Notes under the pieces: generated by a model | Database searches by the model: none | Told to the model about the DNA's origin: nothing | The model's input: only the letters and a program-made list of their open reading frames with translations | Program-made: the position numbers and the translations under genes | Shown here: piece by piece, positions 6,033 to 52,826 of the stretch | Layout of the letters: every line of letters starts with the position of its first letter | Numbering within the stretch: the first letter of the stretch is position 1 | Assembly: GCA_010093815.1 (NCBI GenBank) | Contig: ML996568.1 | Reading direction: 5' to 3' (one strand) | Length of the DNA stretch: 64,000 bases | DNA from: Pseudovirgaria hyperparasitica | Lineage: Eukaryota

Positions 6033-6071
6033 AAGGCTACGTATAGAAAGAGATAATTAAAGTTAAATTAA

Positions 6072-10198: not shown

Positions 10199-11503
10199 AT
10201 ATCTAATACTAGTCCTATTTCTAAGCCTACCTCCTCCTCTTATAAGACTCGCTCTAAAGAGATTATCTCTACCCCGGCTATACCGGCTAAAAAATCCACT
10301 TATTATAGTAGTATAAAGGCGCGCTCTAAGTTAGAGAAGAAGGTAGCTAAGGCTACTACTACTATTACTACTAATATAGCTACTAGTCGCTCTAATCTAG
10401 ATAATCCTAGTACTAGTATTACGGAAGAGATAGCTATAAAGCCTATCTATATCTACTCGCGCTATCTATCTACTCTATCTTCTTTAGAGGATAAAGAAGA
10501 TCTCGTTATAGATAATAATCGAGAGTTTATATCTTCGCCGCCTCGCTCTAAATACCATTTCTCTTTTTAGTCTAATATAGACTAACTTAGTCGCTCTAGG
10601 TTCTTTTAGAACCTTAATATTTACTCTAAACCTAGCTCTAGTAATAATAAGGTCTAGGTCGCCGAAGATACTAAACGTAGTTACGGTTTACGCTATAGGA
10701 AAACAGCGAACTATAGTTTAATATACTTTAAGTATATTAAGGCTTATACTACCGGCTCTAAATATCTCTTCCGCTCTAACTCTAGTATTAGCTATTACTC
10801 TACTAACCGCGACGGGCCTATATACCTAATCTTTAAGCTCCCTACCCGCTACCGCCGCTATACCATCCTTAGTAAAGTTTATCTTTAGATAAGTCTATTA
10901 GGCTATTTTAGTCTAGGGTAATCTAAAGTCGTCTATACTAATACGTTTTTAGGTTCCTATTTATATATAAGATATATATAACGATCTTCGCGTCCGCGAG
11001 ACTCTTGGTAGTTCTAGTAGTTATCTAGCTTCTATACGTAGAGAGTTTAGAGAGCGCTATAAGCTCTTTCTAGAGGTTATTAAAGTATAAGTTTAGAAAC
11101 TATTAATTATTATTAACCTTAGCTTATAATTTTTAGTCGCCGCGAGATTCCTAGCGCTTAGGCTACCTATTCTAGAGAGTTAGTTTTAGCTACTAAGGCC
11201 GTAGAAGAGATTCGTGCTATTCCTTCCCGCCCGCCTTATACTACTAATAGGTCTCGTAAGAGATCTACTAGTTCTCCTTCTAAGTCACCTTATAAGAGGG
11301 TATATATTCTATTCTAGATTATTCTAGACCGCGTTAGCTAACTTTAGGTCTAGTCGCTCCGCTCTAGCACTTAGTCGTCGTCTTACTAGGCTCTAACTAA
11401 GCGCGTAGTTACTCTAGAGGATAAGGTCTCTAACCTCCGTCGCTCTATTACTTAGTTAGTTTATTTACTATACTCTAAGAGTAATAATAAGATAGAGGAG
11501 TAG
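10199..11503 (+). pseudogene. Antisense, intron-containing accessory gene of element E (Ser/Pro-rich N-terminus, Cys6 motif, coiled coil)
   Basis: Frame-consistent model with introns 10889-10952, 11087-11136 and 11300-11347 (first two donors read AT, inferred from GT). Tyr codons spaced C-x2-C-x29-C-x8-C-x2-C-x6-C at 10724-10882. Homolog in F at 43599-44910. Confidence 0.65.
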
Positions 11504-11754
11504 CTCTATGGCTCTATTTACTAGGGTTTCTATATAGTATATATTAGCTCTATCTACCTGGTTTCTATCCGTTTTAGTCCTTTTTAGACCGTTTAGATAT
11601 CTATCTACTAGTTTTCTAGTAATTTAATTCTTAACTTAATAATATTATATACGTTCTTATTTATTCTATAACTATTAAATTTTAGGTTCTAATTTCCTTT
11701 AAGTTACTTAAGTATAGGCATCGTATATAAATTGGTTTATCTCTCTAAATTATA

Positions 11755-11804
11755 TTAGAGTACCCGAACTAGTAGCCTAGTAGTTATTAGTTCGGGTACT
11801 CTAA
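11755..11804. other. Perfect 17-bp-stem inverted repeat between the convergent pol and antisense gene
   Basis: TTAGAGTACCCGAACTA (11755-11771) / TAGTTCGGGTACTCTAA (11788-11804); also present in F at ~43199-43248. Confidence 0.85.
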
Positions 11805-11999
11805 CCTTTTATATTATATATCATAAGTTTAATTCCGTAGTAGAGTACCTTTTTAGTTTCTTAGTCCTATGTTCTTCTTATATATAATAGTCTATGTTAG
11901 TCTATTCTAGACTTCTCTATATTATTCTATTATAATATATTACGTCGCGTGCCTATAACGGTTATTTACGTTTTCTTCGCGTTTAGTAACCGTATATCG

Positions 12000-14900
12000 C
12001 TTAAATTATAGGGCTGCCTTATAGAGTTTTCCTAGTATACGTTTAGAATTTATAATTCGATACTTCGTTCTCTACGGTATTCTTCTTCTTTTTATAATAG
12101 CCCCGACGGCGCTAGGTTTACGGTAGTAACGTGTTATTCTATAACCTCTATTTATATATAGCTATCGTAGTACTTAAGATATATACCGTAGGTTTCTAGG
12201 TGTTCTTATCCTTGGTGTAGTTCTTCTAATAGATTCGATACTTTTAGATACCGTTCTTATCGAGCCTATATTTAATAATATAGTCTACTTTATACACGTC
12301 TAGTCTATCTTAGGGTATAATAGAGTATAATTATACGTTCGTATATTTATACACGTTAGGTTAAAACCTTTTAAGTAATAAGACATGGAATACGTTATAG
12401 ACTTTTATATCGTTTCCTAGGTCGAGCTCGTAGGCTCTTATACTAATATAACGTTTAATTCGGAAGGGACTAGCTATTTTATAATCGAGTTTTTTATTTA
12501 CTCGCGATATTTATATATTACGAATATTAAGAAGGACTTCGTCTCCCTTCTTATACGCTTAATCTTTAACTAATCTATTATAGTACTTTATATACGACTT
12601 ATTTACTTACTAGATTATTACGCGATAGTTATGTGCGGTTTTAAAGATTTTAATCGCTAGTTCCTACGCGTGGACATTAACATCTATTATTCGGTCGAAC
12701 TAGACCGTATAAGGTTCGAAACCTATCCTTAGACTATATTCTAGGTTCGCCTAGAAGGGCGTAATACCTATTATACTATAACGACTATTATTATACGCGA
12801 ATTCTACTATACTTAGTAGAGAGGCCTAGTCGTCTTATTTAAAATTATAGAATACACGAAGGTAGGCCTCGAGCGTTTAGTTCTATCGCTCTATCTAACT
12901 ATCTATTTATAGATAGAATACTATTAATATATTTCTATTTATACCGGCCATTTCGTAGAATAACGTCTAGAATTTAGACGTGAATATACTCCCTCGGTCT
13001 ATAACGATCCTTTTTAGTATACTATGGACCTTAATAATCTTATTCTAGAATACTTATACTAGTTCTTTTAATATAATTATCTTCTATATAGAGACGTACC
13101 TAGATATCTTTATAAGTCTATCCACGATAATAAGAATTAAATTATAACTTATTCTAAGTATCTTACTTAGAGGTAAGTTAACTATAAAATCTATAGTAAT
13201 ATCTTTCTATATAAAGAGGGGGACTAGTAGAGACTATAAGTTCCTATATAGCTTATACCTAGGTGCCTTTATTCTTTAATAAATCGGATAAGTAGCTATC
13301 TATTCTTCGATATACTTAGGTATATCTTTCTAAAAATAGTACTAACGAATCGAGCTTAGGGTGCGTATATACCCGAAATATTCTACTAGGTTAGCGTTAT
13401 AGTATCGGCTAACTATAGTAAATTATACGTTACCTATCGGTATATAGTACTTTCTATTATAGTAGAGTAAGCCGTCCACGAAGGTCTACTTATAGTCTAC
13501 TTCGGTCTATAATAATCTATCTTACTATATTTTATATAACTTTAAAACTATTAGGTCTATCTTTTATAGATCCACGATTAACTAGGTAAGGTCTACTTAA
13601 TATACACGCCGGGTACTATCGCCCTCTCTAATAGCGCTAATAAATGGCTCGCTAGGGACTTTGGTACCGCGTCTTTAGTTACTAGCTTCGGTCTTATAAA
13701 TTTAATTACCGGCATTAGCGTTAGTATCTCGCTAATTATTAGATAACTTATTATCTAACCTTATCCTTAAGAGTTAGGCCTATAGCTACTCTAGGACCCT
13801 ATAGCTACTATAATTCTAGGCGCCTTCTTTATAGTTAGGTCTTCTTAATATTCTATTAGCTAGGTTTATACTTCTAGATTAATAGTAGATTATAAAGTAG
13901 AAATTTATAAGCTACTTAGCCTATTAAACCTATTAACGATTTAAAACTATCGTACTTATAAATCCCTTTAAGTTATAGTAATTAGTTAGTAACTTAACGT
14001 TATATATAGTACCTTTAAGATAATATTACTACTACTTAAACGACTCTACTATTACTAGTAGCTCTTAGTTATAAATAGTATATCTAGTCTCGACGTTAGC
14101 TATCTTACGCGAGAAGAACGTAACTAGATACTATTAGACCTTTTTAGACTCTATTAGTCTAGGCTAGAAGAGTATACCCGAGATTATAAATCCTAATATA
14201 TTAGTTTCGACGCGAATAGGTTTAGTTAGGTCGAAGTACACTAGTAATAGAGCGGTTATAAATGCTTCTTTAATCTTCTCGAAGGATATTCTTTTAACCT
14301 TAGTTAATTTAATAGATTATAATTTAATATTACGCTATTTCTATCTACTATAGACCGTAATAGACGAGTCGGTAGTAGTAGTATATGTATTAAGTGGTAC
14401 GGCTAAACGGGAGAAGTATTTAATAAATTTTTAGTAGTAGTTAGCGAAGCTAATAAAGACACGTATATCTCGAATGGATTTTAGTTTAGACTAGTCTATA
14501 ATAGTAGTAACTCTATCTCTCTCTATAGTTATATCTTAATTAGTAATAATAAAGCTAAGAAAGTTAATATAGTTCTAATAGAACTCGTATTTAGATAGCT
14601 TAATATATAGCTTATACTTTTCTAGTCTATCTAGGACTATATATACGTACTAGATATACTCCTCCTTATTATCTAAGAAGATAAGGATATTATCTAGGTA
14701 TACAATATATGTCATGTCGAGTAGGCCTACTAGCGCGTTATTAATATACGCTTAGAAGGTACCTAGCGCGTTAGTTAGTCTAAAAGGGACCACGGTATAC
14801 TTAAAGTATCTATAACGGGTCCTAAAAGCCGTTTTCTATTCGTCGCCTTCCTTAATATAAAGGCGATAGTAGGTGTTACATAGATTAAGCTTAGTAAAGA

Positions 14901-17784
14901 TCTTTATACGTCCTAGTCTATTAATAGACTTAGAGATAAGAGGTAGTAGATAACGATTCTTTTACGTGATATTATTTAGGCTATAGTAGTCGATATATAG
15001 ATAGAGGCTCCTATCCTTCTTCTTTATAAAGAGAATTAGAGCTCCGGCTAGAGATATACTAGGTCTAATCTATTCTCGCGTAAGGTTCTTTTCGATATAT
15101 TCTCGAAGGGCTTATAACTTAGGTTCTAAAAGAGAGTAGATAGGTCTATATAGAGATTACTAGCCGTCTTCGAGATTAATAGTAAGGTTAGTAGGTTAGT
15201 ATTAAGGTAGTTCGGAGGAATTAATCGCTAACGCGATATATTAGTATATTTTATACTAATATAGTAGGTTTTCGTCCACTTTAATACTAAGCTTGCTATT
15301 TTATATAAGTAAGAGTATATAGATAGTAGAGATCGCCTTCTTATAATCTTTCTAGAATTATTTATTATTAATAAGCTATACTAGTTTCTATTAAGGTAGG
15401 TTTATATACTAGCTAGCTATCTTCTTAAGGAAGTCTAGTTTTAGGTTATATTTCTTAAGCTATAGTATACCTAGAATTATATTAAAGGGACTATCTACCA
15501 CGATAAAGGTTAAGTAGTAGAGTTTCTATTTCCCTCCGCTATCCTAGATGCTATATTTAATAGTATAGGTACCGTATAACTTAATAGGACCGTCGATGCT
15601 ATAGAATATAGTATCTATTAGAGCTTAGATATTAGCGTTAAGTTCTCGTGCTTATTAGGTCGATATAACGTTAGTGGCCGACCTACTATTAAGTATTATA
15701 GTCTAATATTATCCACGAGGGACCTCGATAGATCTAGCCTATAGTTTAATATACTATTTAGCGGATTACCTCTCTATTATAGTCGCGTCTACGAGTCACG
15801 AGGGTTTCTTATAGACTATTAGTTTTTTATATTCTATACTAGGTAGTTAGACGCGATATATCCTAGCTACTAGTACTTATAGTATATAACTAGTTAGTTA
15901 GTTATATTAGTACTTAGTAGCTTCTCTAAACGGCACTTAGGTACTATATAGTCTATTCTACTATAGGTATAGTAAGTAACTTTAGGTCGTTTATGCAAGT
16001 CGGTCCTTATATCTTAATATATTAATTAGTAGAGAGATCCATAATATAATCCGCGTGGTTTTAAATTTAAGGTATAGTAGTAGCCTTATAATGTCCCGCG
16101 AGATCTATTACTAAATTAGTTTTAGTTAGACGATTTTACATTAGATTAGATTGTTAGAGATAGTCGTATACTAGCGCGGCGTTAATTATTTATTATATAC
16201 TAGTATCGCTCCGCGAGGTTTATAAGAGCTTAGAGATCTATAGGGATTATTATTATAAGGTTAAGACGGTTCTTTATATTTAGGGCGAGAGACCGTTTAA
16301 AGTCGTCGTACTATCGAATTATATAATCTTCTTCGGCTTCTCTCTAGAGGGGCCGAAGGTATTTAAGGAGTTATAATAGTAACTAATTATCTCGTTATTA
16401 AGTCTTAAAGATATAGCTCTAGGCCTAGTCGCGTCGTTTAGTTCTATCGCTAAAATATTAGAGGAGAAATTCTATAAGAAGGCGGGCTCTACATACCAAC
16501 TAACTATACCAAAAGGACCGAATCTTAAAGCTACTACTTCAAGGGTGGAGTACACTACTTATATACGACTACTATACACATGTATAATTAACTAGCAGGC
16601 ACGTGCCTAACAATATCTCCCCTTTTCGAAGGCGCGTGTCCTTATACGTCGTGGGCATACTACCTCACGAAAGATAAACTAAACTAGCTGTAACGGGCCT
16701 AGTATAAACGATATACATACACAACCAATACTCGTAATGCCGCCTCTAGTACTAGACACGCTAACTTACCATAGTAACGTTACTACCATATTATCCGTTA
16801 CGTATATAAAGCACACATAACGTAGTAAGCTAAACGAAATTATACGAAATTTAATAATAGTTAACTAGACCGAGAGTTAAACCCGTGACCCCGTAGTAGC
16901 TTTAAGATTATATAAGGAGGCGGGCTCCACGTACTAACTAACTATACTAAAAGAACCGAATCTTAAAGCTACTACTTTAAGGGTGGAGCATACTACTTAT
17001 ATACGACTACTATATACATGTATAATTAACTAGTAGGCACGTGCCTAACAAATTCGGTGAACGTGTCCTAGTTATAGGCATCCTTAGAATATTTAATTTA
17101 GTGTACTATCTAACGTTCTAAAGGTATCGGGTTAAGGTAGTTCTAGGCGAATCTAATTTTATCGCTATCGTTCGTGAATAGATAGAAGAATCGGCTATAT
17201 TAGTAAGCCTATACGTGGAAACTCTTTCTACTTTTACTATTAAAGTAAGGTAGTTTCTTAGGTTAGGGTAATTAGGATAGTAGTAGACTAGAATAGATCG
17301 TTTTAGTTAGTATAGGTCTATATAAATATAGATTAGTCGTTACTAGAACTAAAGCGCGTAATATAGCTTTAAGTCTTATAGTATATCCTTAAGCTTCGTT
17401 AAGTTCGCGTAGTTATTACTTAAGTTAAACCTATCGTTACCTCTCTTCGTGTAGTCTAGTATATATATTATTATAAGGTATAGTTAATATTAGACGATTC
17501 TAATAGATTAACTCGTTAACATTAATAAGGTCTAGCCTTATATTAAGGTTAGATCTAGTATAGTTTAAACTAGACCGAGATAGAGTATAATAGACTCTAT
17601 CCTTATATTCTATAACATCTTCTATAGTTATATAGAATATCGTACGAGTTATTAGTATAATAGCCTATAAGGTATAGTTATTAGTTAGGGTAGTTATAGG
17701 TAGACTATTCTCCTCGTTTAGGTTAGAAGAAGGTCTACTATAAGAGGCGGTACGACGGGTATTATAACGAGTAGTTAGAGCCAT
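12000..17784 (-). pseudogene. gag-pol of element E (approximate 3' end)
   Basis: Gag CCHC near 15840-15890; protease, RT (YLDD-type after de-RIP), IN and chromodomain; homologous to F gag-pol. Confidence 0.85.
16473..17050 (-). mobile_element. Complete TRIM-like non-autonomous LTR element D (578 bp)
   Basis: 140-bp LTRs at 16473-16612 and 16911-17050; TSD AATTC (16468-16472 / 17051-17055); PPT AAAAGGGGAGATAT; non-coding 298-bp interior; empty site in F near 38530. Confidence 0.93.
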
Positions 17785-18065
17785 TTCTATAAACTACCGT
17801 CGTGCTATATAAAGAGGAATTAAAATATAAGGATTATAGATATAGGATAGTAGTCTAATAGATTATAGGAGGATTCGGGAATATCTTTAAAAGGGTAGTC
17901 TACTCTCTTAATAAGGTTAATTTCTAAAGAGTAGGAATTAAGTATATATAGTCTACTTATATAGTGGTCTCGCTTATTCTAGCTGGCTTACCCTAGGTCC
18001 ACCTATCACGGACCGTACTAGACCATAGTATTCTAGTTGAGTCCATTCTAGTATTAGCCCTAACA

Positions 18066-18683
18066 TTATCGTTATACGCTAATAAGTTAACCTTAAGGTA
18101 AGTATTCGTTCCCGGTTCCATTTAGTAGAAGGCATTAGGATTAATTAGCTTAATAATAGCTAATAGAGATTAAGTAACACCTAAGAGCTAAATATAGCCG
18201 ACTATTACTAGCGAGAATTCTATAGAAGGTAGTTTAGCTTACTTATCCTAAAGCGAGCTAATACTAATATACGTTAAGTAATTAAATTTCTAGTTAAACG
18301 ATTCGCGAAGGGGGACTATAACTTACGGCTATATGTCTAGTCTACTTATTATACCGTACTATATATAAGATATAGTAACATCTATATACTATACGCTAAT
18401 CGGATCCTTCTTAAGCTCTAGTTCCGCGTTAAAACGCGTGAAATCTTTCGCTTCTTTAAGAGCATACAAAATACGTATTATAGTAGGGGATTTTAGATTT
18501 CTAAAGTATTACTTAACTCGATTGTGAGTATCGTCCGGTCTAATAAAAGTAGATATAGCGAAACTACTACTAAGGAGTTCATCGATAGTAAAATAAATTA
18601 CCTAGAAGCTACGAGGCACGAAGCTTTACTCCTTAATAATATTCAAGAGTTTAGTTCTCTTATATTTCTTAATAATAAGTTTA
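18066..18683 (-). pseudogene. Third fragment (N-terminal region) of the SF1B helicase ORF
   Basis: Continuous frame with only TAA/TAG stops; joins 9327 and 45628 in frame across TSDs TTATC and GTTTA. Confidence 0.78.
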
Positions 18684-19672
18684 TGTTAGGACGGGAACCA
18701 TAATAGACCTATATGGACTATTCTAATCCATGCAGCCACGTAGTGGCCAGAGCTGGGTTAAGTTAGCTAAGTTAAGCGAGGTTACTATATAAGTAGACCG
18801 TATAAACCGATTCCTACTCGTTAGGAATCAACCTCGTATAAGAGTAAGATTACTCTATAAATACATTCCTATATCTCTCTATAAACTATTAGACTACTAT
18901 CCTACGTCTTTACTCTTTATATTTTAATTCCTCTCTATATAGTACGACGGTAGCTTATAGAGATAGCTCCTACTACGCGCTATAATACCCGTGGCACTAC
19001 CTTATACGAGAGACTCTCTCTAAATCTAAACGAAGAGAATAGTCTCCCTACGACTACCTCTACTAATAAGTATACTCTATAGACTATTATACTAATAACT
19101 AGTACGGTATTCCGTATAACCGTAGAAGATTACCTAGATAATAAGGAAGGAGTCTATTATACTCCATCGCGGTCTAGTTTATACTATACTAGACCTATCC
19201 TTACTATAAGACTAGACCCTATTAACGTTAACGAATTAATTCATTAGAACCGACTAACGTTAACCACGCCTCACGATAATATATATACTAAGCTATTGTA
19301 GAAGGCCGCTCCTATAGCCCTACATGTATATGTCCCTAGCTCGATTACATGGCTTTATTGTATATTTAAGGAGGGCGTTTTCCTTGGTCATTCTACTCGG
19401 CGCGCTTCCCCTATCACTAATATTCGACTATTCGACCTTTTCTTACGTTCATGGGCCTCTATAGGTATTGATTATTAGGCTTAGCTATTAAAGAATTAAT
19501 TGAGAGTATTATATAGACCCGTCCTATTATAAAAGAGAACTAATAAGAAGTCGTGCGTTCAAAGAGAACTCCTAATACCTAGGAGAGATACTTATAAGTT
19601 CGTCGCGACTACTATACTAGAAACATAGCTATTTATAAAAGGGATATACGTAGCGATAGCTTACTATAATTT

Positions 19673-19689
19673 TAGAGGTCGTACCCGGA
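19673..19689 (+). promoter_or_regulatory. Putative tRNA primer-binding site of H (de-RIPed TGGAGGTCGTGCCCGGA; probably tRNA-Gln)
   Basis: Lies 4 nt after the 5' LTR; complementary to a tRNA 3' end ...ACCU-CCA; repeated in H copy 2 (~46477-46493). Confidence 0.55.
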
Positions 19690-20089
19690 CTATAAACTTA
19701 TAGGGGGAGATTAGGACTCCGAAACTAGCTTAGGGGAAGTATATAGCGTGCCTAATAAGGTAGTCTAGACTTACTAGATCGAAGCTACGAGTCCGGAAAA
19801 CAGGGAGTCTAGAGTCGCTAGGGGCTAGCCTCTTAAAAGTAGCCGTAAAAAGCATGCGCATGCTAACACGGGTGATAGCGCGACTCGAAAATGTCTTAGA
19901 GGAATAGAATATAAAATAGGGCCAGATGAAGTAGCAAAGAAGAGTTTAAAAACGATAAATATAACCTATTTAGTGCTACTATAGCTGTTATTTATAAACA
20001 CGGCCACACGAGTATACTACTTTAGGAACGCCTTACACAAAGATAATAATATAAGTAGAATACCGTGAACCTTATATTAATAAAGACGA

Positions 20090-26000: not shown

Positions 26001-26552
26001 TCCGACTTACTCGCTCTTCGAGCTAGATAACTTAAGAGAAGATCCGAGGATCTTAAGGAGGCCTATACCTACGTAATATAAACGCGTAAGGAATTAAGAG
26101 AGGCATAGAATAATAACTATTACCTTCGTTAAGAGTCGTTACTAGTTAATATAATTATCCTCCTTTACGACTCGTAGTAATAAAAGGATATAGAATAGAA
26201 GCTAAGGTAGTATTAGAGGGGGCTATATAGAATCCAGTCCGTGTTTAATTATACTTATAAGCTCGCGGAGCTTAATAGAGCCATACTTAGAGGGACGTTT
26301 CCTAGCCATAGGTTAAAGAAATATTTTATAAGAAATATAAGTAATAAGAGTTATAACGAGCCCTCGCGACCACTAATCGGAAGAATTACCGAGGAAAATA
26401 AGAAGAGTAGTAATAAGGAAAACTATTATAAATAACTTACGGAATACCTTAACGACGCTACACGAACCCGGGTGGAAGTGGTAATTTCTACTCCGTAAGA
26501 CTTTAATAGAGAAGAATATTTACGTTTCCCTAGAATTAACATCTCCTTCTAG
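20090..26552 (+). pseudogene. gag-pol of H copy 1 (approximate ends)
   Basis: De-RIPed: protease FDSGAQVN (~22443); RT DFFSGYDQI, LPQGATNSV, PFLDD (~23870-24066); RNase H; IN zinc finger and core (YNPR.NG.IER). No chromodomain seen. Confidence 0.85.
22882..22918. other. 17-bp-stem/3-nt-loop hairpin recurring inside H
   Basis: GGATTATTAGTTAAGGG-CTA-CCCTTAACTAATAATCC; also at 37572-37608 and 49597-49633, and partially at 20173-20197. Confidence 0.9.
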
Positions 26553-26604
26553 GGGATAGAAGTTTTTTTAAGAAGGGAAGGGATACTTATAAAAGTAGTC
26601 TTAT

Positions 26605-27075
26605 AACGATAAACTCCATTATCGAAAAAGGATAATAAACTCTATTATCGAAAGAGAATGATAAACCCTATTATTACTATAAAATAATAAAACTTATTAT
26701 TAAAGTAAGTAATACTCGAAAGAAGATATAATGGCGTTTACGCGAATTCCATCTACTATACATTAAAGCCGGTCGTATAATCGAAGCCTATCTATTAAAG
26801 GCCTATTTCGTTACTATAGAACGGGCCCTATTAGGAACTAATAAGAAAGAAAAGAAGGAGAAGGTATAGGAGAAAAAGATACTTATAGAAAGTCTTATAA
26901 GGATAAGAATATACCCGGTATCTATTCATTTATAGATTCCGCTATATACCCGGTAGACACATTTATTTATAGATTTCCTATATACCTAGTATATATTTAT
27001 TTATAGATTCGACACGTATACGGGCCTATAGCCGTTAGTAAGGATCATTTATAAAAATTACTATATACCCGGCAT
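26605..27075 (+). repeat. Two short tandem arrays in the H pol-ORF3 spacer (~26-bp and ~34-bp units)
   Basis: Repeated GATAAAC(T/C)CTATTA and TATACCCGGTA...ATTTATAGATT; also in H copy 2 at ~61210-61680. Confidence 0.75.
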
Positions 27076-34296: not shown

Positions 34297-34620
34297 TTAA
34301 CTATAGTACTATATAGGGAGTAATTCGAATGTAAGAATAGGGTTATTAGATAGTAGTATAGTTAGATAGAATAATAGGGTATATTCTATCATAGAACGAA
34401 TTACTACCGAACCCTTTCGGTAGAAATCCGAGAGTATATATATAAAGGGACGCCGATCTATCTAGCACGTGACTATTTACCGCCCTTCACGTCACCTCCT
34501 AACCCTGTTAGCTAAGGTACGTATAGATCGGGTTCTACCTAAGGCTAAGTCCTAACAACTTCCGCCTCGCTTAATTACCTCTCCTTAGAATATAACTCGC
34601 TAATAGAACTAATAATAATA

Positions 34621-37581: not shown

Positions 37582-37735
37582 TTAAGGGCTACCCTTAACT
37601 AATAATCCGGGCTAAGGTTTACCCGCGCCAAGAGGTTTACTAGGGGCGCATTTTATTTATATTAAGGTCTTTCTTTTAGGCGTTCTTTACACGGTTTCTT
37701 ATACGGTTACTATACTACTAAGGGTAGTAGTTCTA

Positions 37736-37990
37736 NNNNNNNNNNNNNNNNNNNNNNNNNNNNNNNNNNNNNNNNNNNNNNNNNNNNNNNNNNNNNNNNN
37801 NNNNNNNNNNNNNNNNNNNNNNNNNNNNNNNNNNNNNNNNNNNNNNNNNNNNNNNNNNNNNNNNNNNNNNNNNNNNNNNNNNNNNNNNNNNNNNNNNNNN
37901 NNNNNNNNNNNNNNNNNNNNNNNNNNNNNNNNNNNNNNNNNNNNNNNNNNNNNNNNNNNNNNNNNNNNNNNNNNNNNNNNNNNNNNNNNN
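37736..37990. other. Assembly gap (N run) covering the start of the H 3' LTR
   Basis: N run; further gaps at 46258-46387 and 47798-47941. Confidence 1.
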
Positions 37991-38133
37991 TAAAAGAGAA
38001 CTAATAAGAAGTCGTGCGTTTAAAGAGAACTTATAATACCTAGGAGAGATACTTATAAGTTCGTCGCGACTACTATACTAGGAACACAGCCATTTATAAA
38101 AGGGATACACGTAGCGATAGCTTACCATACTAT

Positions 38134-41100: not shown

Positions 41101-43000
41101 TTACTTTATAATCTACTATTAATCTAGAAGTATAAACCTAGCTAATAGAATATTAAGAAGACCTAACTATAAAGAAGGCGCCTAGGATTATAGTAGCCAT
41201 AGAGTCCTAGAGTAGCTATAGGCCTAACTCTTAAGGACGAGGTTAGATTTTAAGTTATTAGGCGATTAGCGAGATGCTAACGTTAATGCTAGTAATTAAA
41301 TCTCTAAGACTAAAGCCGGTAACTAAAGACGCGGTACCGAAGTCCCTAGTAGACCGTTTATTAGCGCTATCGGGAAGGGCGATAATGCCCGGCGTAAATA
41401 TCTAATTAACCTCGCCTAGTTAATCGTGGATCTATAGAAGATAGACCCGATAGTTTTAAAGTTATATAAAATATAGTAAGATAGGTTATTACGGACTAAA
41501 GTAGACTATAAGTGGACCTTCGTAGACGGCTTACTTTACTATAATAGAAAGTACTATATACTAACGGGTAACGCGTAATTTAACGTAGTTAGCTAATACT
41601 ATAACGCTAACCTAGTAGGATACTTTAGGTATATACGTACCCTAAGCTTAATTTATTAGTACTATTTTTAGGAAGATATACCCAAGTACGTTAAAGAATA
41701 GATAGCTACTTATCTAATTTATTAAAGAATAAAGGCCTCTAGGTACAAGCTATATAGGAATTTATAGCCTCTTTTAGCCCCCCTCTTTATATAGGAAGAC
41801 GTTACTATAGACTTTATAGTTAACTTATCTCTAAGTAAGATACTTAGGATAAGTTATAATTCTATTCTTATTATCGTGGATAGACTTATAAAGATATCTA
41901 GGTATATCCCGGTATAGAAGACGATTATATCCAAAGAACTAGCGTAGGTGTTCTAGAACGAGATTATTAAGGTCTATAGTATACTAAAAAGGATCGTTAT
42001 AGACCGAGGAAGTACCTTCACGTCTAAATTCTAGACGTTATTCTACGAAATAGTAAGTATAAATAGAAATATATCTATAGTATTTTATCCTTAGACGGAT
42101 AGCTAGATAGAGTAATAGAACTAGACGCTCGAGGCCTACCTATGTATATTCTATAATTTCAAGTAGAACAACTAGGCCTCCCTACTAAGCATAGTAGAGT
42201 TCGTATATAATAATAGTCGTTATAGTATAATAGATATTATACCTTTCTAGGCGAACCTCGGACGTAGTCTAAGGATAGGTTTTAAGCCTTAGACGGTCTA
42301 ATTTAATCGAATAATAGACGTGAACGTCCACGCTTAGAAATTAGCAATTAAAATCTTCGAAACCGTACATAACTATCACGCTATAATCTAATAAGTAAAC
42401 GACTCGTATACGAAGTACTATAATAGGTTAGCTAAGGATTAGACGTACGAGGAGGGCGATAAGGTCCTTCTTAATATCTATAATATACGAACGTCGTAAG
42501 TAAATAAGAAGCTTAATTATAAAATGGCTAGTCCCTTCCGAATTAAACATCGCATTAGTATAAGAGTCTACGAGCTCGACTTAGAAAGTAATATAAGAAT
42601 CTATAACGTGTTCCACGTCTTACTACTCGAAAGATTTCGACCTAACGTGTATAGCCGCACGAACGTATAGTTATACTCTATTATACCCTAAGATAGACTA
42701 GACGTATTCGAAGTGGACTATATTATCGAATATAGGATTAATAAAGACGGTGTTTAGAAATATAGAATCCGTTAGAAGGACTATACTAAGAACGAGGACA
42801 CCTAGGAACCAGCGGTATATATCTTAAGTTCTATAATAGCTGCGTATAAGTAAAAGATATAGAATAGCGTATTATTAATATAAGTATAGTAACGTCGTGG
42901 TCGTCGTAAAAAGAAGAAGGATACTATAGAGAACGAAGTACTAAACTAGGAAATCCAGACACGTACTAGGAAAACTCTATATAGTAGTCCTATAATTTAA
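38134..43000 (+). pseudogene. gag (continuation) and pol of element F; gag 5' part at 18963-19296
   Basis: Gag CCHC at ~39117-39160; RT ([34 protein letters not shown] after de-RIP); RNase H; IN; chromodomain DVFEVDYII...WKDY...TWEP (~42700-42815). Confidence 0.88.
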
Positions 43001-43439
43001 GCGTTATATAGTTACTAGACGCGAAGAAAGCGTAAATAACCATTTTAGGAACGTAACGCGACATACCATAATAGAACAATATAGAAGAGTCTAGAATAGA
43101 CTAATATAGACTATTATACACGAGAAAAACATAGAACTAAGAACCTAAAAAAAGGTACCCTACTATAGAATTAAACTCTTAATACGAAATATAAAAGGTT
43201 AGAGTACCCGAACTAATAACTACTAGGCTACTAGTTTAGGTACTCTAATAGAATTCATAGAGATAAACTAATTTATATACGGTGCCTACACTTAGGTAAC
43301 TTAAGGAAAATTAGAATGTAGAAACCGATAGTCATAAGCTAAGTAAGCGCACATATAATATCATTAAGTTAAGAATTAAATTACTAGAAACTAGCCGACG
43401 GGTATCTAAACGGTCTAAAAAGGACTAAAATAGATAAAA

Positions 43440-43600
43440 GCCAGGTAAATAGAGCCGGCACGCACTATCTATAGTAGATCTAGAATATATAGAGCCAGGC
43501 ATAGAGCTAATATATAGAGCTAGGCACAGAGCTAATATATAGAGCTAGACCATAGAGCCAACATATAGAGCTAAACCTATAGAGCTAGAACCATAGAGCT
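43440..43600. repeat. Tandem array of 12-13-bp AGAGC(C/T)-containing units downstream of the F antisense gene
   Basis: Repeats of AGAGCTAGGCAT / AGAGCTAATATAT; far fewer units at the equivalent E position. Confidence 0.8.
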
Positions 43601-44910
43601 ACTCCTCTATCTTATTATCCATCCTAACCTCTAGTATAGTTCTCTCTAACTACACGATATAGCGGCGGAGGACGACGACCTTAGCCTCTAGAGTAATAAC
43701 CCGATCTATTAGAGCCTAGAGGGAAGAGCCTTAAGCGCCGGAGCGTAGCGACTAGGTCTAAAGTTAGCTAACACGATCTAGAATAATCTAGAAGAGAATA
43801 TATACCCTCTTACAAGGCGACTTAGAGGGAGAAATAGTAGACCTCTTATAAGATCCGTTAGTAGCGCGAGATAGATAGGGGGGGATAGAGTAAATCCTCT
43901 CTACGGCCTCTATAGCTAGAATAGACTCCCTAGAATAGATAGCCTAGGCGCTAGGGATCTCGCGGCGGCTAGAAAAATTAATAGGTGTTAAAATAATTAA
44001 CGTGCTCATAACTTATACTTTAATAACCTCTAGGAAGAGCTTATAGCGCTCCCTAAACTCCCTCTATATAGTAGGTAGACGGCTATAAGGACCCCCGAGG
44101 GTCTCACGGACGCGAAGGTCGTTATATATATCTTATATATATATAGGAACCTAAGAATATATTAGCGCGGACCACTTTAGATTATACTAGATTAAGATAG
44201 CCTATTATACTTACCTATAGATAAGTCTTACTAGTTATGGTATAGCGGTAGTAGCGGGTAGATAGAGTAAAGATAGGGTATATAGGCCCGTCGCGGTTAG
44301 TAGAGTAGTAGCTAATACTAGAGTTAGAGCGAAAGAGATATTTAGAGCCGGCTATATAGCCCTTAATATACTCATAGTATATTGAACCGTAGTTCGCCGT
44401 TTTCCTATAGCGTAAACCGCGACTACGTTTAGTATCCTCGGCGACCTAGGCCTTATTATTAGTAGGCTAGAGTTTAGAGCAAATATTAAGGTTCTAAAAG
44501 AACCTAGAGCGACTAAATCGGTCTATATTAGACCGGAAGGAAGAGCGGCGAGGTAGCGGCGTAGGTAAGCGTAAGGGCTCGCGATTATCGTCTATAACGA
44601 GATCTTCTTCATCCTCTAGAGAAGGTAGAGTAGACGGTATACGCTTTAGAGCGAGAGAAGAACCTACGACCACTTTATCCATAAGTTTAGTACTAGAATT
44701 ACCTAGATTAGAGTGACTAGTAGCTATATTAGTAGTAGAGGCAGTAGTAGTAGTAGCCCTAGCTACTCTCTTCTCTAACTTAGAGCGCGCCTTCGTACTA
44801 CCGCGATAGATAGACTTCTTAGCCGGTGTGGCTAGGGAGGAGGCGATACCTTTAGAGCGAGTCTTACGAGAGGAGGAGGCAGGCTTAGAGATAGGACTAG
44901 TATTAGATAT
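43599..44910 (-). pseudogene. Antisense, intron-containing accessory gene of element F (homolog of 10199-11503)
   Basis: Colinear with the E gene; retains GTAAGT donors at 44214 and 45099 where E has ATAAGT. Confidence 0.65.
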
Positions 44911-45627
44911 CTATATATATACGTTAGCTAGAGATCTAAGGAAGGAATATTTATCTACTCTTAACGGCGATTAACGAAGCTAAATTAGTAACCGTAATAA
45001 CGCGAATAGGTTATATAGGACCGGTTCTAATAAGAATAGACTACTATAGACCCTTCTAAACCTAAACTAGGGAAGATAGTATATAAATTAATGACTTACC
45101 TTAAGAGCGAGGTAGATATACTAGAGAATAAAATCAAAGGTAAGCGAAGCTAAATATATACTCGACCAAAGTAGTAATTACGTGTCCTAGGTAGTAGCTA
45201 TAAAGCAAGGGATAAGCGCGTGTATAAACTAGTAAAAGTAAACTAGAATCTCGAGTTCATCTATATTAAAGATGGTTATAACGTTATAGGAACTTAGTCA
45301 CGGATATATAGATACACGATAGATTATAGAGACTTAGAATTATATATACTTAAGTGCTTCGGGGCGAAGTATTAAAGGAAGAAGGATATTATTAGGACGG
45401 GAACTATAATAGACCTATATAGACTATTCTAATCTATATAGCCACGTAGTGGCTAGAGCTAGGTTAAGTTAGCTAAGTTAAGCAAGGTTACTATATAAGT
45501 AGACTATATAAACCGATTCCTACTCGTTAGGAATTAACCTCGTATAAGAGTAAGATTACTCTATAAATATATTCCTATGTCTCTCTATGAACTATTAGAC
45601 TACTATCCCATATCTTTACTCTTTATA

Positions 45628-45723
45628 GTTTAGAAAGCTAGGGGAAGAAGCCCACGAAGTTACTAACTTAGTCGACTTTCGAAATTTACATAGCGGGATC
45701 CGTAGAAGAGAGAAGAATGTTAA
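45628..45723 (-). pseudogene. Fourth (most 5') visible fragment of the SF1B helicase ORF
   Basis: In frame with 18683 across TSD GTTTA; expected to continue beyond D copy 3 / H copy 2, outside the window. Confidence 0.7.
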
Positions 45724-46126
45724 TGTTAGGCACGTAAGGAGCACGTAGCCTGCTAGTTAATTCTATATGTATGTAGTAGTCGTATATAAGTAGTGTACTC
45801 CACCCTTAAAGTAGTAGCTTTAAGATTCGGTCCTTTTAGTATAGTTAGTTAGTATATAGAGTCTACCTCCTTATATAATCTTAAAGCTACTATAGGGTTA
45901 CGGGTTTAACTCTCGGTCTAGTTAACTATTATTAAATTTCGTATAATTCCGTTTAGCTTATCATATTACGTGTACTTTATACACGTAATAGATAACATGG
46001 TAGTAACATTACTATGGTAAGTTAGCGTGTCTAGTACTAGAGGCGGCATTACGAGTATTGGTTATATGTATATATCGTTTATACTAGGCCCGTTACGGCT
46101 AGTTTAGTTTATCTTTCGTAAGGTAG
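45724..46126 (+). mobile_element. TRIM-like D copy 3 (5' LTR 45724-45875 plus interior), interrupted by H copy 2
   Basis: Reverse complement of ~16660-17050; the LTR carries a 12-nt insertion near its start. Confidence 0.92.
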
Positions 46127-49100
46127 TATAGAAGGCCGCTCCTACAGCCCTACATGTATGTATCCCTAGCTCGATTACATGGCTTTATTATATATTTAAG
46201 GAGGGCGTTTTCCTTGGTCATTCTACTCGGCGCGCTTCCCCCATCACTAATATTCGANNNNNNNNNNNNNNNNNNNNNNNNNNNNNNNNNNNNNNNNNNN
46301 NNNNNNNNNNNNNNNNNNNNNNNNNNNNNNNNNNNNNNNNNNNNNNNNNNNNNNNNNNNNNNNNNNNNNNNNNNNNNNNNNNNNNNNAGAGATACTTATA
46401 AGTTCGTCGCGACTACTATACTAGGAACATAGCTATTTATAAAAGGGACACACGTAGTAATAGCTTACTATAATTTTAGAGGTTGTACCCGGACTACGAA
46501 CTTATAGAGGGAGATTAGGACTCTAAAACTAGCTTAGGGGAAGTATATAGCGTGTCTAATAAGATAGTCTAGACTTACTAGATTAAAGCCATGAGTCCGG
46601 AAAATAGAGAGTCCGGAGTCGCTAGGGGCTAGCCTCTTAAAAGTAGCTGTAAAAAGTATACGTATACTAACACGGGTGATAGCGCGACTCGAAAATGTCT
46701 TAGGGGAATAGAATATAAAATAGGGCTAGATGAAGTAGTAAAGAAGAGTTTAAAAACGATAAATATAACCTGTTTAGTACTACTATAGCTATCATTTATA
46801 AACACGGTTACACGAGTATACTACTTTAGGAACGCCTTATACGAAGATAATAATATAAGTAGGATACCGTGAACCTTATATCGATAAAGATAATAGTAAT
46901 AGTTTACCTTATAAAGGGATTAGTTAATATAGAGAAGGGATAATAGGTGTTATAGGTAGACGTATTAGGCCAACCTTTAGTTAAGGTAATCCCTTAACTA
47001 ATAACCTTACCCCTAGCGTCTCTACTAGTATACCTACTACTAGTAATAGTATGATAGAAGCTTAAAATAACGACCTAGTAACTCGTAGAGAGATGCTTAA
47101 CTTCTTCATAGTATTTGCGCGATAAGGAAGGATAGTATCTCTATCTACCCTAGCCCCCGAGCGCTTTAAAGGAATAAATATTACAGCCTTCCTTCGGAAG
47201 TACGAGAATATATATATAAACTACGAAGTTCCGCCTAATAAGAAGATAACCTCCCTACCATTATACTACGAGGACTATCTCCGTCCTACTATTAAAGGAA
47301 TAAGTAGGTTTTAGAAATAGTAGTAGGCCACGCTACGTGAAGAATTATTAAAGGAATTCTCTCTATTTAACTCTACCCTTAAGGAAGGTACTATCTACTT
47401 TATCTAAAAATACGTGGAAATAGTTAAAGTAGACCCATTCTACTCTCTCCCTATATACTACTCCTAGTATTATATTATTATAGAGAAACTTACGGCTAAA
47501 GGAAGTCTAAGCTTATATTCGTAAATAGAGCTCTTCCTAGAAGGGCTACCTAATAGTCTTAAGGCTTAGGCTATAGAGAAATGTTAACTCACGATAGAAG
47601 TATATAGTTATAACTAGGTAATTATCTATGGCTTCGTATTACGAAAGGCTAGAGTATATAAGGAACTAGCTTATATTAATAAGTACTTAGCCGTATAAGA
47701 GCTAGCTATAGCTATATACTATAAATTAAAGATAGAGAGTAAGAAGACCGGCTTAGAAGAGTAGTTATATAAAGAAAGAAGAACTAATAAATTTAACNNN
47801 NNNNNNNNNNNNNNNNNNNNNNNNNNNNNNNNNNNNNNNNNNNNNNNNNNNNNNNNNNNNNNNNNNNNNNNNNNNNNNNNNNNNNNNNNNNNNNNNNNNN
47901 NNNNNNNNNNNNNNNNNNNNNNNNNNNNNNNNNNNNNNNNNNGAACTAACGTAAGTTTATCCATAGAATTATATATAGAATAGAGAATACGTCTCTACCC
48001 GAGACTCCTAAGGAGGCGTTATAGCCTAGAATAGGCCTCGAAGACTAATTATATATATTACGTACGGAGAAGATTACCTAATATATAGATATCCGGAGAT
48101 AGTAGGATATATTAGAGACGGATTACTAAATATTAACGGGGTATAAGTATTCCGAGGGCGTTTCGGGGCGAACGGAGAAGAAGTCCTATTACTATCCTCC
48201 TTAGTAGAGCTATAAGCTACTCTATAAGCTATCCGGAACTACATAGTAACGGTTTAAAATGGTCTAAGCTAGTACGGAGGAGGAGTAAAGGTTTCTACGT
48301 CTATAGTAAATATTAACGCTTTATAGGGAGTGCTAGTATATAGTATTAGTATAAAACCTACGAAGGGTCTCTACTAGGCCTTAGCGGATAGCGATTTAGA
48401 AGAAGAAGTTATATCGCCCGAGAGTAAGAAAGATAGATATATAGAATTCTACGAACGCTTTAACGTAGCTAGTAATAGATATATCTATAAGGAGATAGCC
48501 CTAGAAGAGCCTACTATACTCGTAATATCTAGAAGGGGGATTACAAAGAGTATATCTAATCGTACTAAGGAAAGAAAGATCGCCCGTCTCTACGGAATGC
48601 GTAAAGGGTAGTATATAAGGATTATTAAGGAATAGAAGAATAGTAAGAAGAGTAGCGACTAGGGAACGTCTAAATAAGAGCTAATAGCGCTAGAGGATAA
48701 GATAGATAAAGGGGATAGCCTAAATCCTAGTTAAAAGGCACGTATCTAAGGTGTTAAGCTTAATAACTATCTACGCGAAGGATAGCGGCTAAGTATAGAA
48801 GCTAGCGAAGTATAGCTAGTGCGCGTTCTAGGGATAACTATAAATATTACTATTAGCGAACTATTAAGCCTTAATAGTAACTTATATTATATAGTATTTA
48901 AGAAGGGCGCCCCTAACTTTATAGCTAGAGAGGTCTATAAGGCTTAAGAAGAGAGAGCTAAGAAGAAAGAAAGAAATAACTATACTATAGCTCCCGAGAT
49001 AAATAAACTTAATATATTAGTACCCCTCTATACTATAGGGACGGCTATCACGTAACGAGATATTAATTAGCTTAAGAAAGGGATAGTAAGACTAGTAGCT

Positions 49101-50774
49101 AAGTATCTAAGGTACCCCGTAGAAGTTAGTTCTAAAAGGGCGACTAGTATAGTACTATTTAATAGTGGTGTATAGGTAAATAGTATTCGACTAGATACTA
49201 TAAGGCGTCTTAGGCTAGTAATATCTTCGCTTCTACTATATATAAAGAACTCGAGTTTAGTTAGCGCTACTTAGTATAGTACTCTATTTATAGAAATAGT
49301 ATAGTAATACCCTATCCGCATAGGTCGGATCGTTATAGCCACTTTAATATTTATATATAGCGAACTTAATTATAACCTTATCCTAGGGAAGCTATATACT
49401 AGATAGGCCTTACTTACGGTATAGAGGTTAGCCTCTAGATAAGTACTCTTAATAGTCTACTCCGTATATAGATAAGAATATATAACCTTTAAAACTAGTC
49501 CAGATAAGTATATTCTAGTCTTAGAGAAGGAGGGTAACTCCGTAGCTAGAGACTAACTATATAGTAGAGTATATCGCCGGAAGCCGGAGTTAAGCCGGAT
49601 TATTAGTTAAGGGCTACCCTTAACTAATAATCCATACTAAATAGAGTCCGGTAAACCTACTAACAAAGAGAATAGGCTATACTTTTATATAGATATAGAA
49701 ATAAGTTATATAGAGTTACTTTCCGAGAAAATCCGGCCTAAAAATATTACTTAGTTATTAAGAAAAGATAACTTAGCCGCCCTAGTTACGGTAGTAAGGT
49801 ATACTACCTTTATATATAAATAAGGCATAATAATAGAACGGCTTATAGTAGGCTCTACCGGCCTCTAAAGATAGTATTCATCCAGGGTATTAAAGGGATT
49901 TAGTATAGCTACTATATATAAAAGAAAGGGAGTTAAAGTATACCCTATAGATAACTCCGAAGCCCACCGAAAGGTTCCTAGGAATCTATTAGGGTATCTA
50001 GACTAGCGTGAACGAGTAATCGCACAGTAGATACTTCTTCTAGCCGTCTACCTAGGCCTTAACGCGTTTAATAGGCTAATAGAGTCTTAAAGGGTAACTA
50101 TCCCGCTAGGAACACGTCTAACGCCTCTACGTATAAGTTAGCTAAAGATTAGAATAGAGCTACGTCCTACGGAACTTAAGTTACTATATATAATCTTATT
50201 ATATCGCGAGGAAGTACTAGTATAGGAATTCTTATACCTTAGTAAATTTAATAAAGAGGTGGTACCTCCGTAGGAGATCCGAACGGTAGAACATAAGATA
50301 TAGTAGACTAAGAACTTTAATATTCCTAGAGCCCTTTATAGAAAGGTACTTACGATCCTAAAAGAGCATCTTAATAGCGGAAGGCTTAAGCCCTATAGTA
50401 GTCCTTATTAAAACGCCTATTTTCTTATAGAAAAGAAGAAGGATGTAATGGATGTGACCAAGGTGTTACTACAATAGCAATTAGAATATATTATAATTTA
50501 ACTTAGAGAGAGTAGGGGTGGCTCATATAGGTTATAGCTTAAGTATAGTCTTAAGCGAGGTCACGTGATACCCCTATACTAGTCTCTATCTATCCCGGCT
50601 CCGTCATGTAACGCTAGAGATAAGGTAAAGCCGAAGTCCATAACATACCCTTATTCTCTAGGGTTATCTTAGGGACCGGCTTGGTATTTCATGTAATAAT
50701 AACCGGCTCGGTTGGGTCTTGGGTTTACGGTCTTTATATCGTACTATATAATAGTAGTAGGGCTATATATTACG

Positions 50775-51250
50775 TCTAGTAAGGTAGCTATATCCTATAG
50801 TCGCGTCTCGGTCGCGTAATAGAGGAGGGTTCCTCTATAACGGCGTCGTTAGTTATATAATCGCATGGTAGTAGTACCTCGTGGTTACGTCCTAGCGGTC
50901 ACGTGGCGGAGAAAGGTTCCTTATATCACGGCGTTATTAGTTATGTAATCGCATGGTAGTAGTATCTCATGGTTATATTCTAGCGGTCACGTGGCGGAGG
51001 TGGGTTCCTTATACTATGGCGTTATTAGTTATGTAGTCGCATGGCGGTAGCATCTTATAGTCGCGTTCTAGCGGTCACGTGGCGGAGGTAGGGTATCCTA
51101 CGCACGAACCGCGCGTCTTATTTATTATTACCCATTTTAGGACCGGTTCTTCTCCGGGCTAGGGGTTAGATAGTAGTAGTAGGGTAGCTTACGCACGACC
51201 CGCGTTTATTATTATTATTATCCATTTTAGGACCGGCTCCACCCCGGCCT
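50775..51250 (+). repeat. Tandem repeats in the A 3' region (~3.5 x 88 bp, then 2 x ~60 bp)
   Basis: TCGCATGG units start at 50861, 50949 and 51037, each containing GCGGTCACGTGGCGGAG; second unit TACGCACGA...CCATTTTAGGACCGG occurs twice. Confidence 0.88.
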
Positions 51251-51372
51251 ATACGATTTTCCCTAACGCGAGTATATAGGTCCCACGTCTAGCGACTTTC
51301 TTCTTCTTTAACTACCATTACGCCTACTATCTCGACACCGCGTAGTAGCTACCACGATATTAGTAAACTCGC

Positions 51373-52826
51373 ATGCCACCTCGTAGCTTCTATACTATTA
51401 TTATAAGCGCGCTAGGCCTAAATAGGCCTATTATAGAAGCCGGCGCCGTCTCGGCGGTGGCTATAGATACTGGGGGTTAAGACCCTAACGATTAACGCGC
51501 GCCTAGGCGCTAGGAACCGCCTAACCGCACCGTGAGTGGGTCCTATCCCTACGCCGTTCCTCATGCTAACTAGATAGATTATTCCTTCTACCGCCTCCCG
51601 ATAGACTAAGCCTATTTACTATATAGGGCTATATATTATAGAGGGTAACTCGTTAGAAGACGAGTATACCGAGTCCGTATACTTCGTATATCATATATAT
51701 ATAAAGGCCCTAGAGAAGACTAGGGTGCTTAAGTACGTGCCGTCTCTACGTCGTGGTAGCGCCTACTAATCTAGAGCGTAGCTATAAGCCTAGCCGCGGT
51801 ACTAACTATATAAAGTGCCATACGTCGAAAGGGACCTACTTATAGAATACCGAGGAGCTCGCCACGCACCCGGCCCTATATAAGGTATAGAGCCGCCTTA
51901 AGAAGTTTATACACGAGTCAGTTAATAATAACTTTAGTTATATAATAGACCGTGGTAGTCGCGGCCTAGACCCGACTAAGCCTTCGTCCGGTAAGTGGCC
52001 GCGTATAAACTCTAAGTTCTACCACCTATATAAGGACTATAAGTCTAACTTAGAGATTATATATATCGCCCGCCATAACGCTAGTATCGTTAGTTAGGTC
52101 TCTATAACGCCTAATCGCGGTACTATTACGGTAATTAAGACGCCATATCGTGGTAGTAGTAACCGTAGATAGCTTAGTAGTGTAATTCACTAGATAAATT
52201 AGTATATATCGCATAACGAGGCCTAAATAGGCGAGTTACGTACTAATATCGGCGCCCTATAGGTATATACTTAGTTAGCCTAATTACTACTATCTTAACA
52301 CGTAATGTAGGGTTCAATGTAGTAGGTCGCTTCTAGCCTAGCACGCCTAGCCGAGCCGCCGCCTCGCCGACTCCTTATCTAGGCGGTTATAGAGGAGGAG
52401 GAGCCTCGTTTAAGTAGTAGTCGCCCACACCGCCCTCGGCTAAGCGGCCCTAAGGAGTCGCCTACCCGTAGCCCGTGCTATCGCCATACCACCCCCCGCT
52501 AGCTCCCTATTACTCCCCCCCCGTGGGAGGCCTTACCGTTACCGCGCCGTCTCCGCACCCCGCCCCGCCGCTACGACCCGTCCCGGCGCCGCTCTCGCTC
52601 GCCGGAGCGCCGTAGCCGGTCCCCTAACCGCCGTAACCGGTCCCCTTACCGCCGTGACCGGTCCCCCCGCCGCCGTGACCGTTCCTATAAGTATCGCCGC
52701 TAATCCCGTAACCGCCGGCGTCGTACTATCGAGGGTCGTCGCTTATCGCGTCGTTACCGGTTACCGTCTTATAGCCGCCATAGCCGCCCCGACGAGGTAT
52801 ATAACTCCCCCTCACCGCTAAGCTAG
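51373..52826 (+). pseudogene. Antisense, intron-containing accessory gene of element A (Cys6 motif, short coiled coil, RS/RSP-repeat tail)
   Basis: ATG at 51373. Introns 51532-51577 (GTGAGT..GCTAAC..AG), 51733-51781, 51991-52053 (GTAAGT..CTAAC..TAG) and 52263-52310 keep the frame. C-x2-C-x11-C-x7-C-x2-C-x6-C at 51689-51839; tail RSRSPERRSRSP.RR.RSP.RRDRSPRRRDRS. Confidence 0.75.

Follow-up and report, generated by a model that had tools for sequence, protein, structure and literature searches.

Traces of a possible antisense accessory gene between pol and the 3' LTR in chromoviruses of Pseudovirgaria hyperparasitica

The 64,000-nucleotide stretch of contig ML996568.1 (assembly GCA_010093815.1) of the fungus Pseudovirgaria hyperparasitica analysed here, called the window below, contains four Ty3/gypsy long terminal repeat (LTR) retrotransposons, A, C, E, and F, at the positions and in the orientations originally predicted; E and F are copies of one family. 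In each of them 2-2.5 kb lie between the end of pol and the short 3' LTR (203-251 bp), in agreement with the region of about 2 kb inside the element that had been predicted, and the question is whether this stretch once carried a gene. We favour, with slightly less than even confidence, the answer that it held a family-specific accessory gene, probably antisense to gag-pol and of the kind known as brtn or aORF-3R, which was destroyed by repeat-induced point mutation (RIP). Support for this reading is strongest in E/F and A and is lacking in C, and the genes of the three families need not be related to each other.

Selection between pol and the 3' LTR

The window is AT-rich (GC 0.31-0.51) and bears a heavy RIP signature, with TpA/ApT at 1.6-2.1 and (CpA+TpG)/(ApC+GpT) at 0.08-0.23. 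No open frame of at least 150 codons was found in its six frames. RIP makes no transversions, and our tests used the transversions between sister copies, namely E versus F, and A versus A2, a second copy of family A. In E/F, transversions at the first, second, and third codon positions numbered 1, 1, and 17 in the reverse transcriptase (RT) and 0, 0, and 10 in the integrase (IN), and in A/A2 pol they numbered 5, 3, and 64. The ratio of nonsynonymous to synonymous change (dN/dS), computed from transversions only, was 0.02 (RT) and 0.00 (IN) for E versus F and 0.05 for A versus A2. Because the transversions in pol fall almost only at third positions, the copies diverged as active elements. The pol-3' LTR regions are common to both pairs of sister copies; they belong to the elements, and purifying selection on pol was strong in the lineages that carried them.

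In E/F and A, the substitutions within these regions themselves follow a weakly codon-like pattern, with in-frame indels. When the E/F regions were read antisense to gag-pol and spliced, 36 of 75 transversions fell at third positions (p = 0.006), including 19 of 40 in exon 1 and 14 of 29 in exon 3, and the E/F LTR control was flat (9, 10, and 10 of 29 transversions at the three positions). In A, the comparison of 52311-52826 with A2 gave 34 of 62 transversions at third positions (p = 4e-4), and the flank at 52827-53150 was flat (5, 7, and 4 of 16). The exonic indels were all multiples of three, with 6 nt (at 10367) and 3 nt (at 11464) in E/F and 12 nt in A. Among the E/F indels located in predicted introns or outside the gene, 1 of 12 (15 nt) was a multiple of three, and the sole indel of the E/F gene region that was not, 2 nt long, lies in predicted intron 2. 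Third-position bias, in-frame indels, and a 21-nt repeat of A that is also in frame argue for coding constraint. Thus, protein-coding constraint likely acted in the pol-3' LTR regions of two families.

The same observations tell against the alternative that the region is non-coding, being a 3' untranslated stretch, a cis-acting sequence, tandem repeats, or a promoter, with its frames, strings of Tyr codons, and apparent introns as artefacts of RIP-biased composition and of post hoc choice. We regard this alternative as unlikely but as deserving serious weight, since two independent families show the third-position bias beside flat flanks, and since several results agree with it and weigh against an antisense gene. 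The constraint is weak compared with that on pol, with a transversion-only dN/dS of 0.59 in E/F exon 1 and 0.41 in A. The region has diverged 3-5 times as much as pol and contains hypervariable blocks, and parts of the E/F exons reach the divergence of the LTR. Conservation is highest in a block at 10069-10368 (6 transversions), which is kept at all codon positions, as a cis-acting element would be. A codon model trained on RIP-mutated pol frames, which picked the true frame in 84 of 88 test segments of E, F, C, B, and D (B and D being copies of a larger neighbouring family) and in only 34 of 56 of A and A2, scored the antisense frames near zero (-2.8 to +3.1), which is not coding-like.

Frame openness is equally ambiguous. 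Stop-poor frames of 260-300 codons with at most 8 stops also lie antisense to the pol of A and B/D, and stop-free 68-codon stretches with at least 10 Tyr, Cys, or His codons occur at 4 independent loci, 3 of which are opposite pol (in B/D, C, and A). In the integrase region of C (29876-30251), the true frame holds more stops than an antisense frame. Stop density was accordingly rejected as a coding test, as pol is at least as open on its wrong strand, and TGA-free frames were useless because RIP removes TpG everywhere. On the noncoding strand of real genes, stop-poor, Tyr-rich frames arise easily.

The strand has to be weighed as well. A third open reading frame (ORF) on the sense strand after pol, in the frame whose wobble positions coincide with those of the antisense frame, appears improbable to us, yet it fits the same bias. 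In E/F its transversion-only dN/dS is 0.43 (15 of 39 synonymous, p = 0.01) versus 0.59 for the antisense frame. Its stop density of 6-9% resembles the 7.1% found in true pol frames after RIP, pol regions can have fewer stops on the wrong strand than on the right one, as the C integrase region illustrates, and the neighbouring B/D family has a clear extra sense ORF. However, the codon model gave the sense frame -3 to -11, below the antisense frames, while the extra sense ORF of B/D scored +7 to +16. The sense frame also has 9 stops across the 68 codons that face the Tyr-rich block, the 2-nt indel and stop-rich gaps would break a continuous frame, and in A the antisense frame is better (0.41 versus 0.65). 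The dN/dS comparison of E with F that had been proposed as a check therefore came out in two parts: the antisense frames do show third-position bias, but a sense frame fits about equally. What is observed opposite gag-pol is an antisense frame with codon-like substitutions and in-frame indels, to which either strand fits and in which, as elsewhere, every frame is broken by RIP.

Searches for relatives add to the points against a gene. F exon 1, A 51705-52280, and the whole A frame (region 49-240) served as queries in word-seeded protein searches, which yielded 396, 12, and 252 candidates, respectively, none at E<=1. A HMMER profile of E and F exon 1 gave 0 matches at E<=0.001 against 1.84 billion protein representatives, and 12 antisense-frame translations matched no Pfam family, TRP28 (PF04195) included. 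Two RIP-tolerant degenerate DNA patterns gave 0 matches each in metagenome contigs. The un-RIPed relatives expected by the original prediction were thus absent from the results of protein, profile, and DNA-pattern searches. In the ESM Atlas, a stop-free piece of F had a best score of 0.86 with Ascomycota clusters, which is a weak lead. A 68-residue antisense piece of A (51891-52094, +) resembled a sulfotransferase there (0.92/0.91, 112-123 shared features); it had no Pfam support, is probably a chance match, and was rejected.

The antisense accessory gene that we favour would be a fast-evolving one, of which the 2-2.5 kb would be a relic. Its transcription, opposite in direction to gag-pol, would start at an internal promoter near the LTR, and its short introns, being antisense in the genomic RNA, may persist through retrotransposition. 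Its product would be basic and largely low-complexity, rich in Ser, Thr, Lys, and Arg in E/F and with RRxRSPx repeats in A, and would include a short heptad-like stretch. It might act in the nucleus on the nucleic acid or the expression of the element itself.

Gene models, the Tyr/Cys motif, and RIP

The region opposite gag-pol had been predicted to splice into one frame in each family. In-frame three-exon models could be built for E, F, and C, though C requires a poor 5' splice site. In F, TAG followed directly by GTAAGT stands at the exact end of exon 1 (44214), with ATAAGT at the equivalent site of E, and GTAAGT occurs at 0.41 per kb per strand. The E model has 15 stops in 402 codons (3.7%), compared with 72 in 1015 (7.1%) in the true RIP-mutated pol frame. 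Exon 1 of E begins with a Ser/Thr/Lys-rich part and continues into a Tyr-rich 68-codon block, its last 68 codons, in which TAY and TAR codons number 13 and 0. The high divergence of intron 2 (11/51, Fisher p = 0.002 versus its flanks) was discarded as evidence, because it ranks fifth among 51-nt windows and three of the four that equal or exceed it lie inside exons.

The model for C has 305 codons and 10 stops, and its intron 2 reads GTAATA...TACTAAT...TAG. A canonical GTAAGT (28137) lies eight bases past GTATTT (28129) but is out of frame, and the model therefore needs GTATTT. C is a single copy in the window and its splice sites are weak, which counts against a gene there. An intron directly after the C-L-Q position was also part of the prediction. 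An intron-like GTAAGT or ATAAGT lies there in E/F, but in C the predicted intron depends on the poor GTATTT site, and A has no intron at that position.

According to the original prediction, A, C, and E/F share one ancient, vertically inherited, spliced antisense gene for a Zn2Cys6-like DNA-binding regulator. We consider this very improbable. The motif on which it was based, [CY]x7-10[CY]x2[CY]x6[CY]L, does exist on the antisense strand at 10823 in E, 44280 in F, 28057 in C, and 51783 in A. In all four copies, [CY]x2[CY]x6[CY] is followed by Leu and a stop in a stop-poor frame, GTAAGT or ATAAGT comes directly after the motif in E/F, and GT comes after it in C. The four motif positions read TAY in E as well as in F, and one is TGC in A; the 13 Tyr codons of exon 1 common to E and F could be former Cys. 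However, the motif is not rare, which also agrees with non-coding sequence. Tyr makes up 8.0% of six-frame codons in the window, [CY]x2[CY]x6[CY] occurs there 100 times and the longer form 9 times at 6 independent loci, and the Leu and the x7-10 range were chosen after the data had been seen.

The identity of the cluster did not hold up. The full spacing C-x2-C-x6-C-x5-12-C-x2-C-x6-8-C is absent at all four loci even with Tyr counted as Cys, and the regions hold only its second half and one upstream residue. With Tyr allowed, the full pattern occurs twice in the window (543 and 35634), both times outside the four regions. RIP can change a Cys codon only to Tyr, which makes the missing six-position spacing a robust negative. 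Pfam searches for Zn_clus or any family gave 0 matches at E<=1 for the 12 translations and 0 at E<=10 for exon pieces, although Cys-to-Tyr changes would weaken a true PF00172 match. The likeness to the Gal4-type Zn2Cys6 cluster (PF00172) is limited to the C-x2-C-x6-C-like Tyr/Cys spacing and the heptad-like stretch downstream. In contrast to that family, the first half of the cluster is missing here, no profile matches, the residues may have been Arg, and the block is some 200 residues away from the proposed start instead of at the N-terminus.

Nor did the assumption that Tyr stands for former Cys or His hold up among the Tyr codons that a sister copy resolves. The premise that RIP yields TAY from TGY and CAY is correct but incomplete here, because RIP also hits CpG and so turns CGY (Arg) into TAY. 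CpG was hit almost as readily as the nearly exhausted CpA, at 0.37-0.40 of sites versus 0.55-0.60 of the remaining sites for CpA (E/F, A/A2). The resolvable sister partners of Tyr were Arg 25, His 4, and Cys 1 in total (E/F exon 1: Arg 5, Cys 1, His 0; A/A2: Arg 20, His 4, Cys 0), and an Arg/Tyr swap lies inside the motif itself at 10853. In true pol frames, the resolvable Tyr codons traced back to Arg in 37 cases, to His in 26, and to Cys in 2. As a rough estimate from the RIP rates, only 2-3 of the 13 Tyr codons that E and F share were Arg, and a block rich in Cys, His, and Tyr in E/F exon 1 is possible. Where RIP hits both CpG and CpA, the Tyr codons of decayed copies come mostly from Arg or His, and zinc-finger readings that take Tyr as Cys are therefore unsafe.

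Common descent is not supported either. The 3' regions of A, C, and E/F had been described as not alignable with each other, which we can confirm: no DNA similarity was detected, and the best E-value in six-frame tblastn was 0.14. Profile alignment between families by hhalign gave probabilities of 0.18% and 0.11%, without aligning the motifs to each other. As homology among A, C, and E/F is undetectable, the notion of an old, vertically inherited, shared gene rests on a short motif chosen post hoc. The widest version, in which the E/F, C, and A frames are diverged homologues of an ancient intron-bearing gene of Pezizomycotina chromoviruses, encoding a Cys/His-rich zinc-binding DNA-binding regulator with a coiled coil, with the 13 shared Tyr codons derived from Cys or His and the C-L-Q intron ancestral, is in our opinion highly unlikely.

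The nest of retrotransposons

The LTR retrotransposons form a nest, which was mapped by self-BLAST and repeats and by tblastn with the pol reading of element A. The ends of pol were set by Chromo and SH3 matches and the LTRs by repeats. Coordinates are collected in Table 1.

Table 1. Elements, putative antisense genes, and repeats of the window
Feature	Coordinates	Strand	Details
Element A	50443-58327	-	LTRs 50443-50645 and 58125-58327 (203 bp); nested in element D
Element A2	1-6273	-	Second copy of family A, cut by window start; equals A 52048-58327
Element C	27176-34558	-	LTRs 27176-27402 and 34332-34558 (227 bp); nested in element B
Element E	9469-18073	-	Chromovirus-like Ty3/gypsy; 3' LTR 9469-9719 (about 251 bp); 5' LTR ends at 18073
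Element F	about 38127-45632	+	Family of E; 5'-truncated; chromodomain about 42707-42853; 3' LTR ends at 45632
B/D copies	19289-38129 and 46388-64000	+	C nested in the first (27176-34558), A in the second (50443-58327)
E putative exon 1	10199-10888	+	230 codons, 4 internal stops; motif 10823-10885; terminal TAG 10886-10888
E predicted intron 1	10889-10952	+	64 nt; ATAAGT...CTAAT...TAG; F homologue GTAAGT
E putative exon 2	10953-11086	+	In frame with exon 1
E predicted intron 2	11087-11136	+	50 nt (48 nt in F)
E putative exon 3	11137-11503	+	Heptad-like Leu/Val/Ile stretch, judged by eye
F putative antisense gene	43599-44910	-	Exon 1 44215-44910; motif 44218-44280
F predicted intron 1	44151-44214	-	GTAAGT
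F putative exon 2	44017-44150	-	
F predicted intron 2	43969-44016	-	
F putative exon 3	about 43599-43968	-	
Tandem repeats	43484-43601	.	Units of 13-25 nt; between F pol end and putative gene; E lacks 100 nt here
C putative antisense gene	27886-28915	+	Exon 1 27886-28128 (ATG kept); motif 28057-28125
C predicted intron 1	28129-28180	+	GTATTT
C putative exon 2	28181-28365	+	
C predicted intron 2	28366-28427	+	
C putative exon 3	28428-28915	+	
A putative antisense region	51373-52826	+	Motif 51783-51842; open stretch 51657-52190
A Arg/Ser/Pro-rich open stretch	52311-52826	+	Contains 21-nt in-frame repeat, 52608-52685
Tandem repeat	50822-51099	.	88-bp unit, 3.2 copies; between A 3' LTR and putative gene

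Element A carries the lowest RIP load among the elements, and its sense frame matched RVT_1 (1.1e-21), RT_RNaseH (5e-16), and Integrase_H2C2 in Pfam, with no Pfam domain in the other five frames. Element C matched Integrase_H2C2 (1.3e-10), SH3_Tf2-1 (1.4e-11), rve (1.1e-4), and Chromo (5.9e-4). In E, RT and IN were found by tblastn, and the integrase also by Pfam, with SH3_Tf2-1 at 2.2e-11. The Chromo match (PF00385) of F (5.5e-6, 26.7 bits) exceeds the Pfam cut-off of 25.1, and those of C, A (0.005), and E (0.058) fall under it. The order RT, RNase H, integrase, and then chromodomain makes the assignment of A, C, E, and F to the chromoviruses a fair one. Four sequencing runs showed very many genomic copies; their contigs are of DNA or contain almost nothing of the region.

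The B/D family is a large Ty3/gypsy family of about 11 kb on the + strand (RT_RNaseH 2.4e-10). Its long sense ORF-like region 3' of pol (about 34708-35308 and 35758-37558, frame +1) reaches the codon scores of pol and has no Pfam match. B and D differ almost only by transitions, with 1 transversion. At least one N is present at about 37700-38129 (codon TAN).

A third, incomplete copy of the E/F family (18686-19290, +), consisting of LTR and leader only, adjoins the 5' end of E. Element E is interrupted by a foreign insertion of 578 bp (16473-17050), a small repeat with direct repeats at 16469-16613 and 16907-17051, made up of a 145-bp unit and about 290 bp. The same repeat occurs at 9330-9470 and 45741-46129, immediately beyond the 3' LTR ends of E and of F, and it is the only part of 43400-53399 that is present at length in two sequencing runs of another sample (X3, X4).

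Comparison with known antisense genes

If real, the genes discussed here would extend brtn-type accessory genes, which are little studied, beyond Botrytis and Sclerotinia to other chromovirus families of fungi, and would show that retrotransposition can carry short antisense introns with it. HBZ of human T-cell leukemia virus type 1 (HTLV-1), a vertebrate retrovirus, is an antisense gene that is spliced, lies at the 3' end of its retroelement, and codes for a basic coiled-coil regulator, a bZIP protein. The putative genes here are analogous to it in mechanism only and have no sequence relation to it.

The kind of gene itself has been described before. The brtn gene is an antisense gene of Boty-like Ty3/gypsy elements in Botrytis cinerea and Sclerotinia, published by Zhao et al. 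(2011, Virology 417:248) as cited in four articles (PMC8365987, PMC7264820, PMC4227169, PMC5987419). According to these articles, brtn is present in BcGypsy1, and other BcGypsy classes have additional predicted ORFs (PMC8365987); Boty, which is also found in Sclerotinia, is grouped with plant aORF-3R elements (PMC7264820); and a Monilinia transcript is 63% identical to BRTN (PMC5987419). Similar to the regions analysed here, brtn belongs to fungal chromodomain-bearing Ty3/gypsy elements, sits antisense to gag-pol in the interval from pol to the 3' LTR, and has a product described without a known domain (PMC7264820, PMC4227169, PMC8365987, PMC5987419). However, the present copies have been killed by RIP, and the likeness to brtn is one of position and description; the E/F profile matched nothing among the 1.84 billion representatives. 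Our literature searches for Zn2Cys6 together with an antisense gene in an LTR retrotransposon found none, and those for an additional antisense ORF in fungal gypsy elements found only a plant review.

In plants, a paper on Retand (PMC11963269) reports antisense ORFs in all Retand elements, many of them predicted to be DNA-binding, as well as tandem repeats in the same region, and mentions the antisense genes of HTLV. Tandem repeats likewise occur in the pol-3' LTR regions here. As described there, though, Retand elements are plant non-chromovirus lineages whose regions measure 2.9-6.6 kb versus 2-2.5 kb here, and the TRP28 domain was not found in our translations. Antisense genes between pol and the 3' LTR are thus on record for fungal Boty (brtn) and for plant Retand, Grande, and RIRE2, which removes any claim to an undescribed kind of gene. 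At best, the antisense genes of these chromoviruses add to this published kind.

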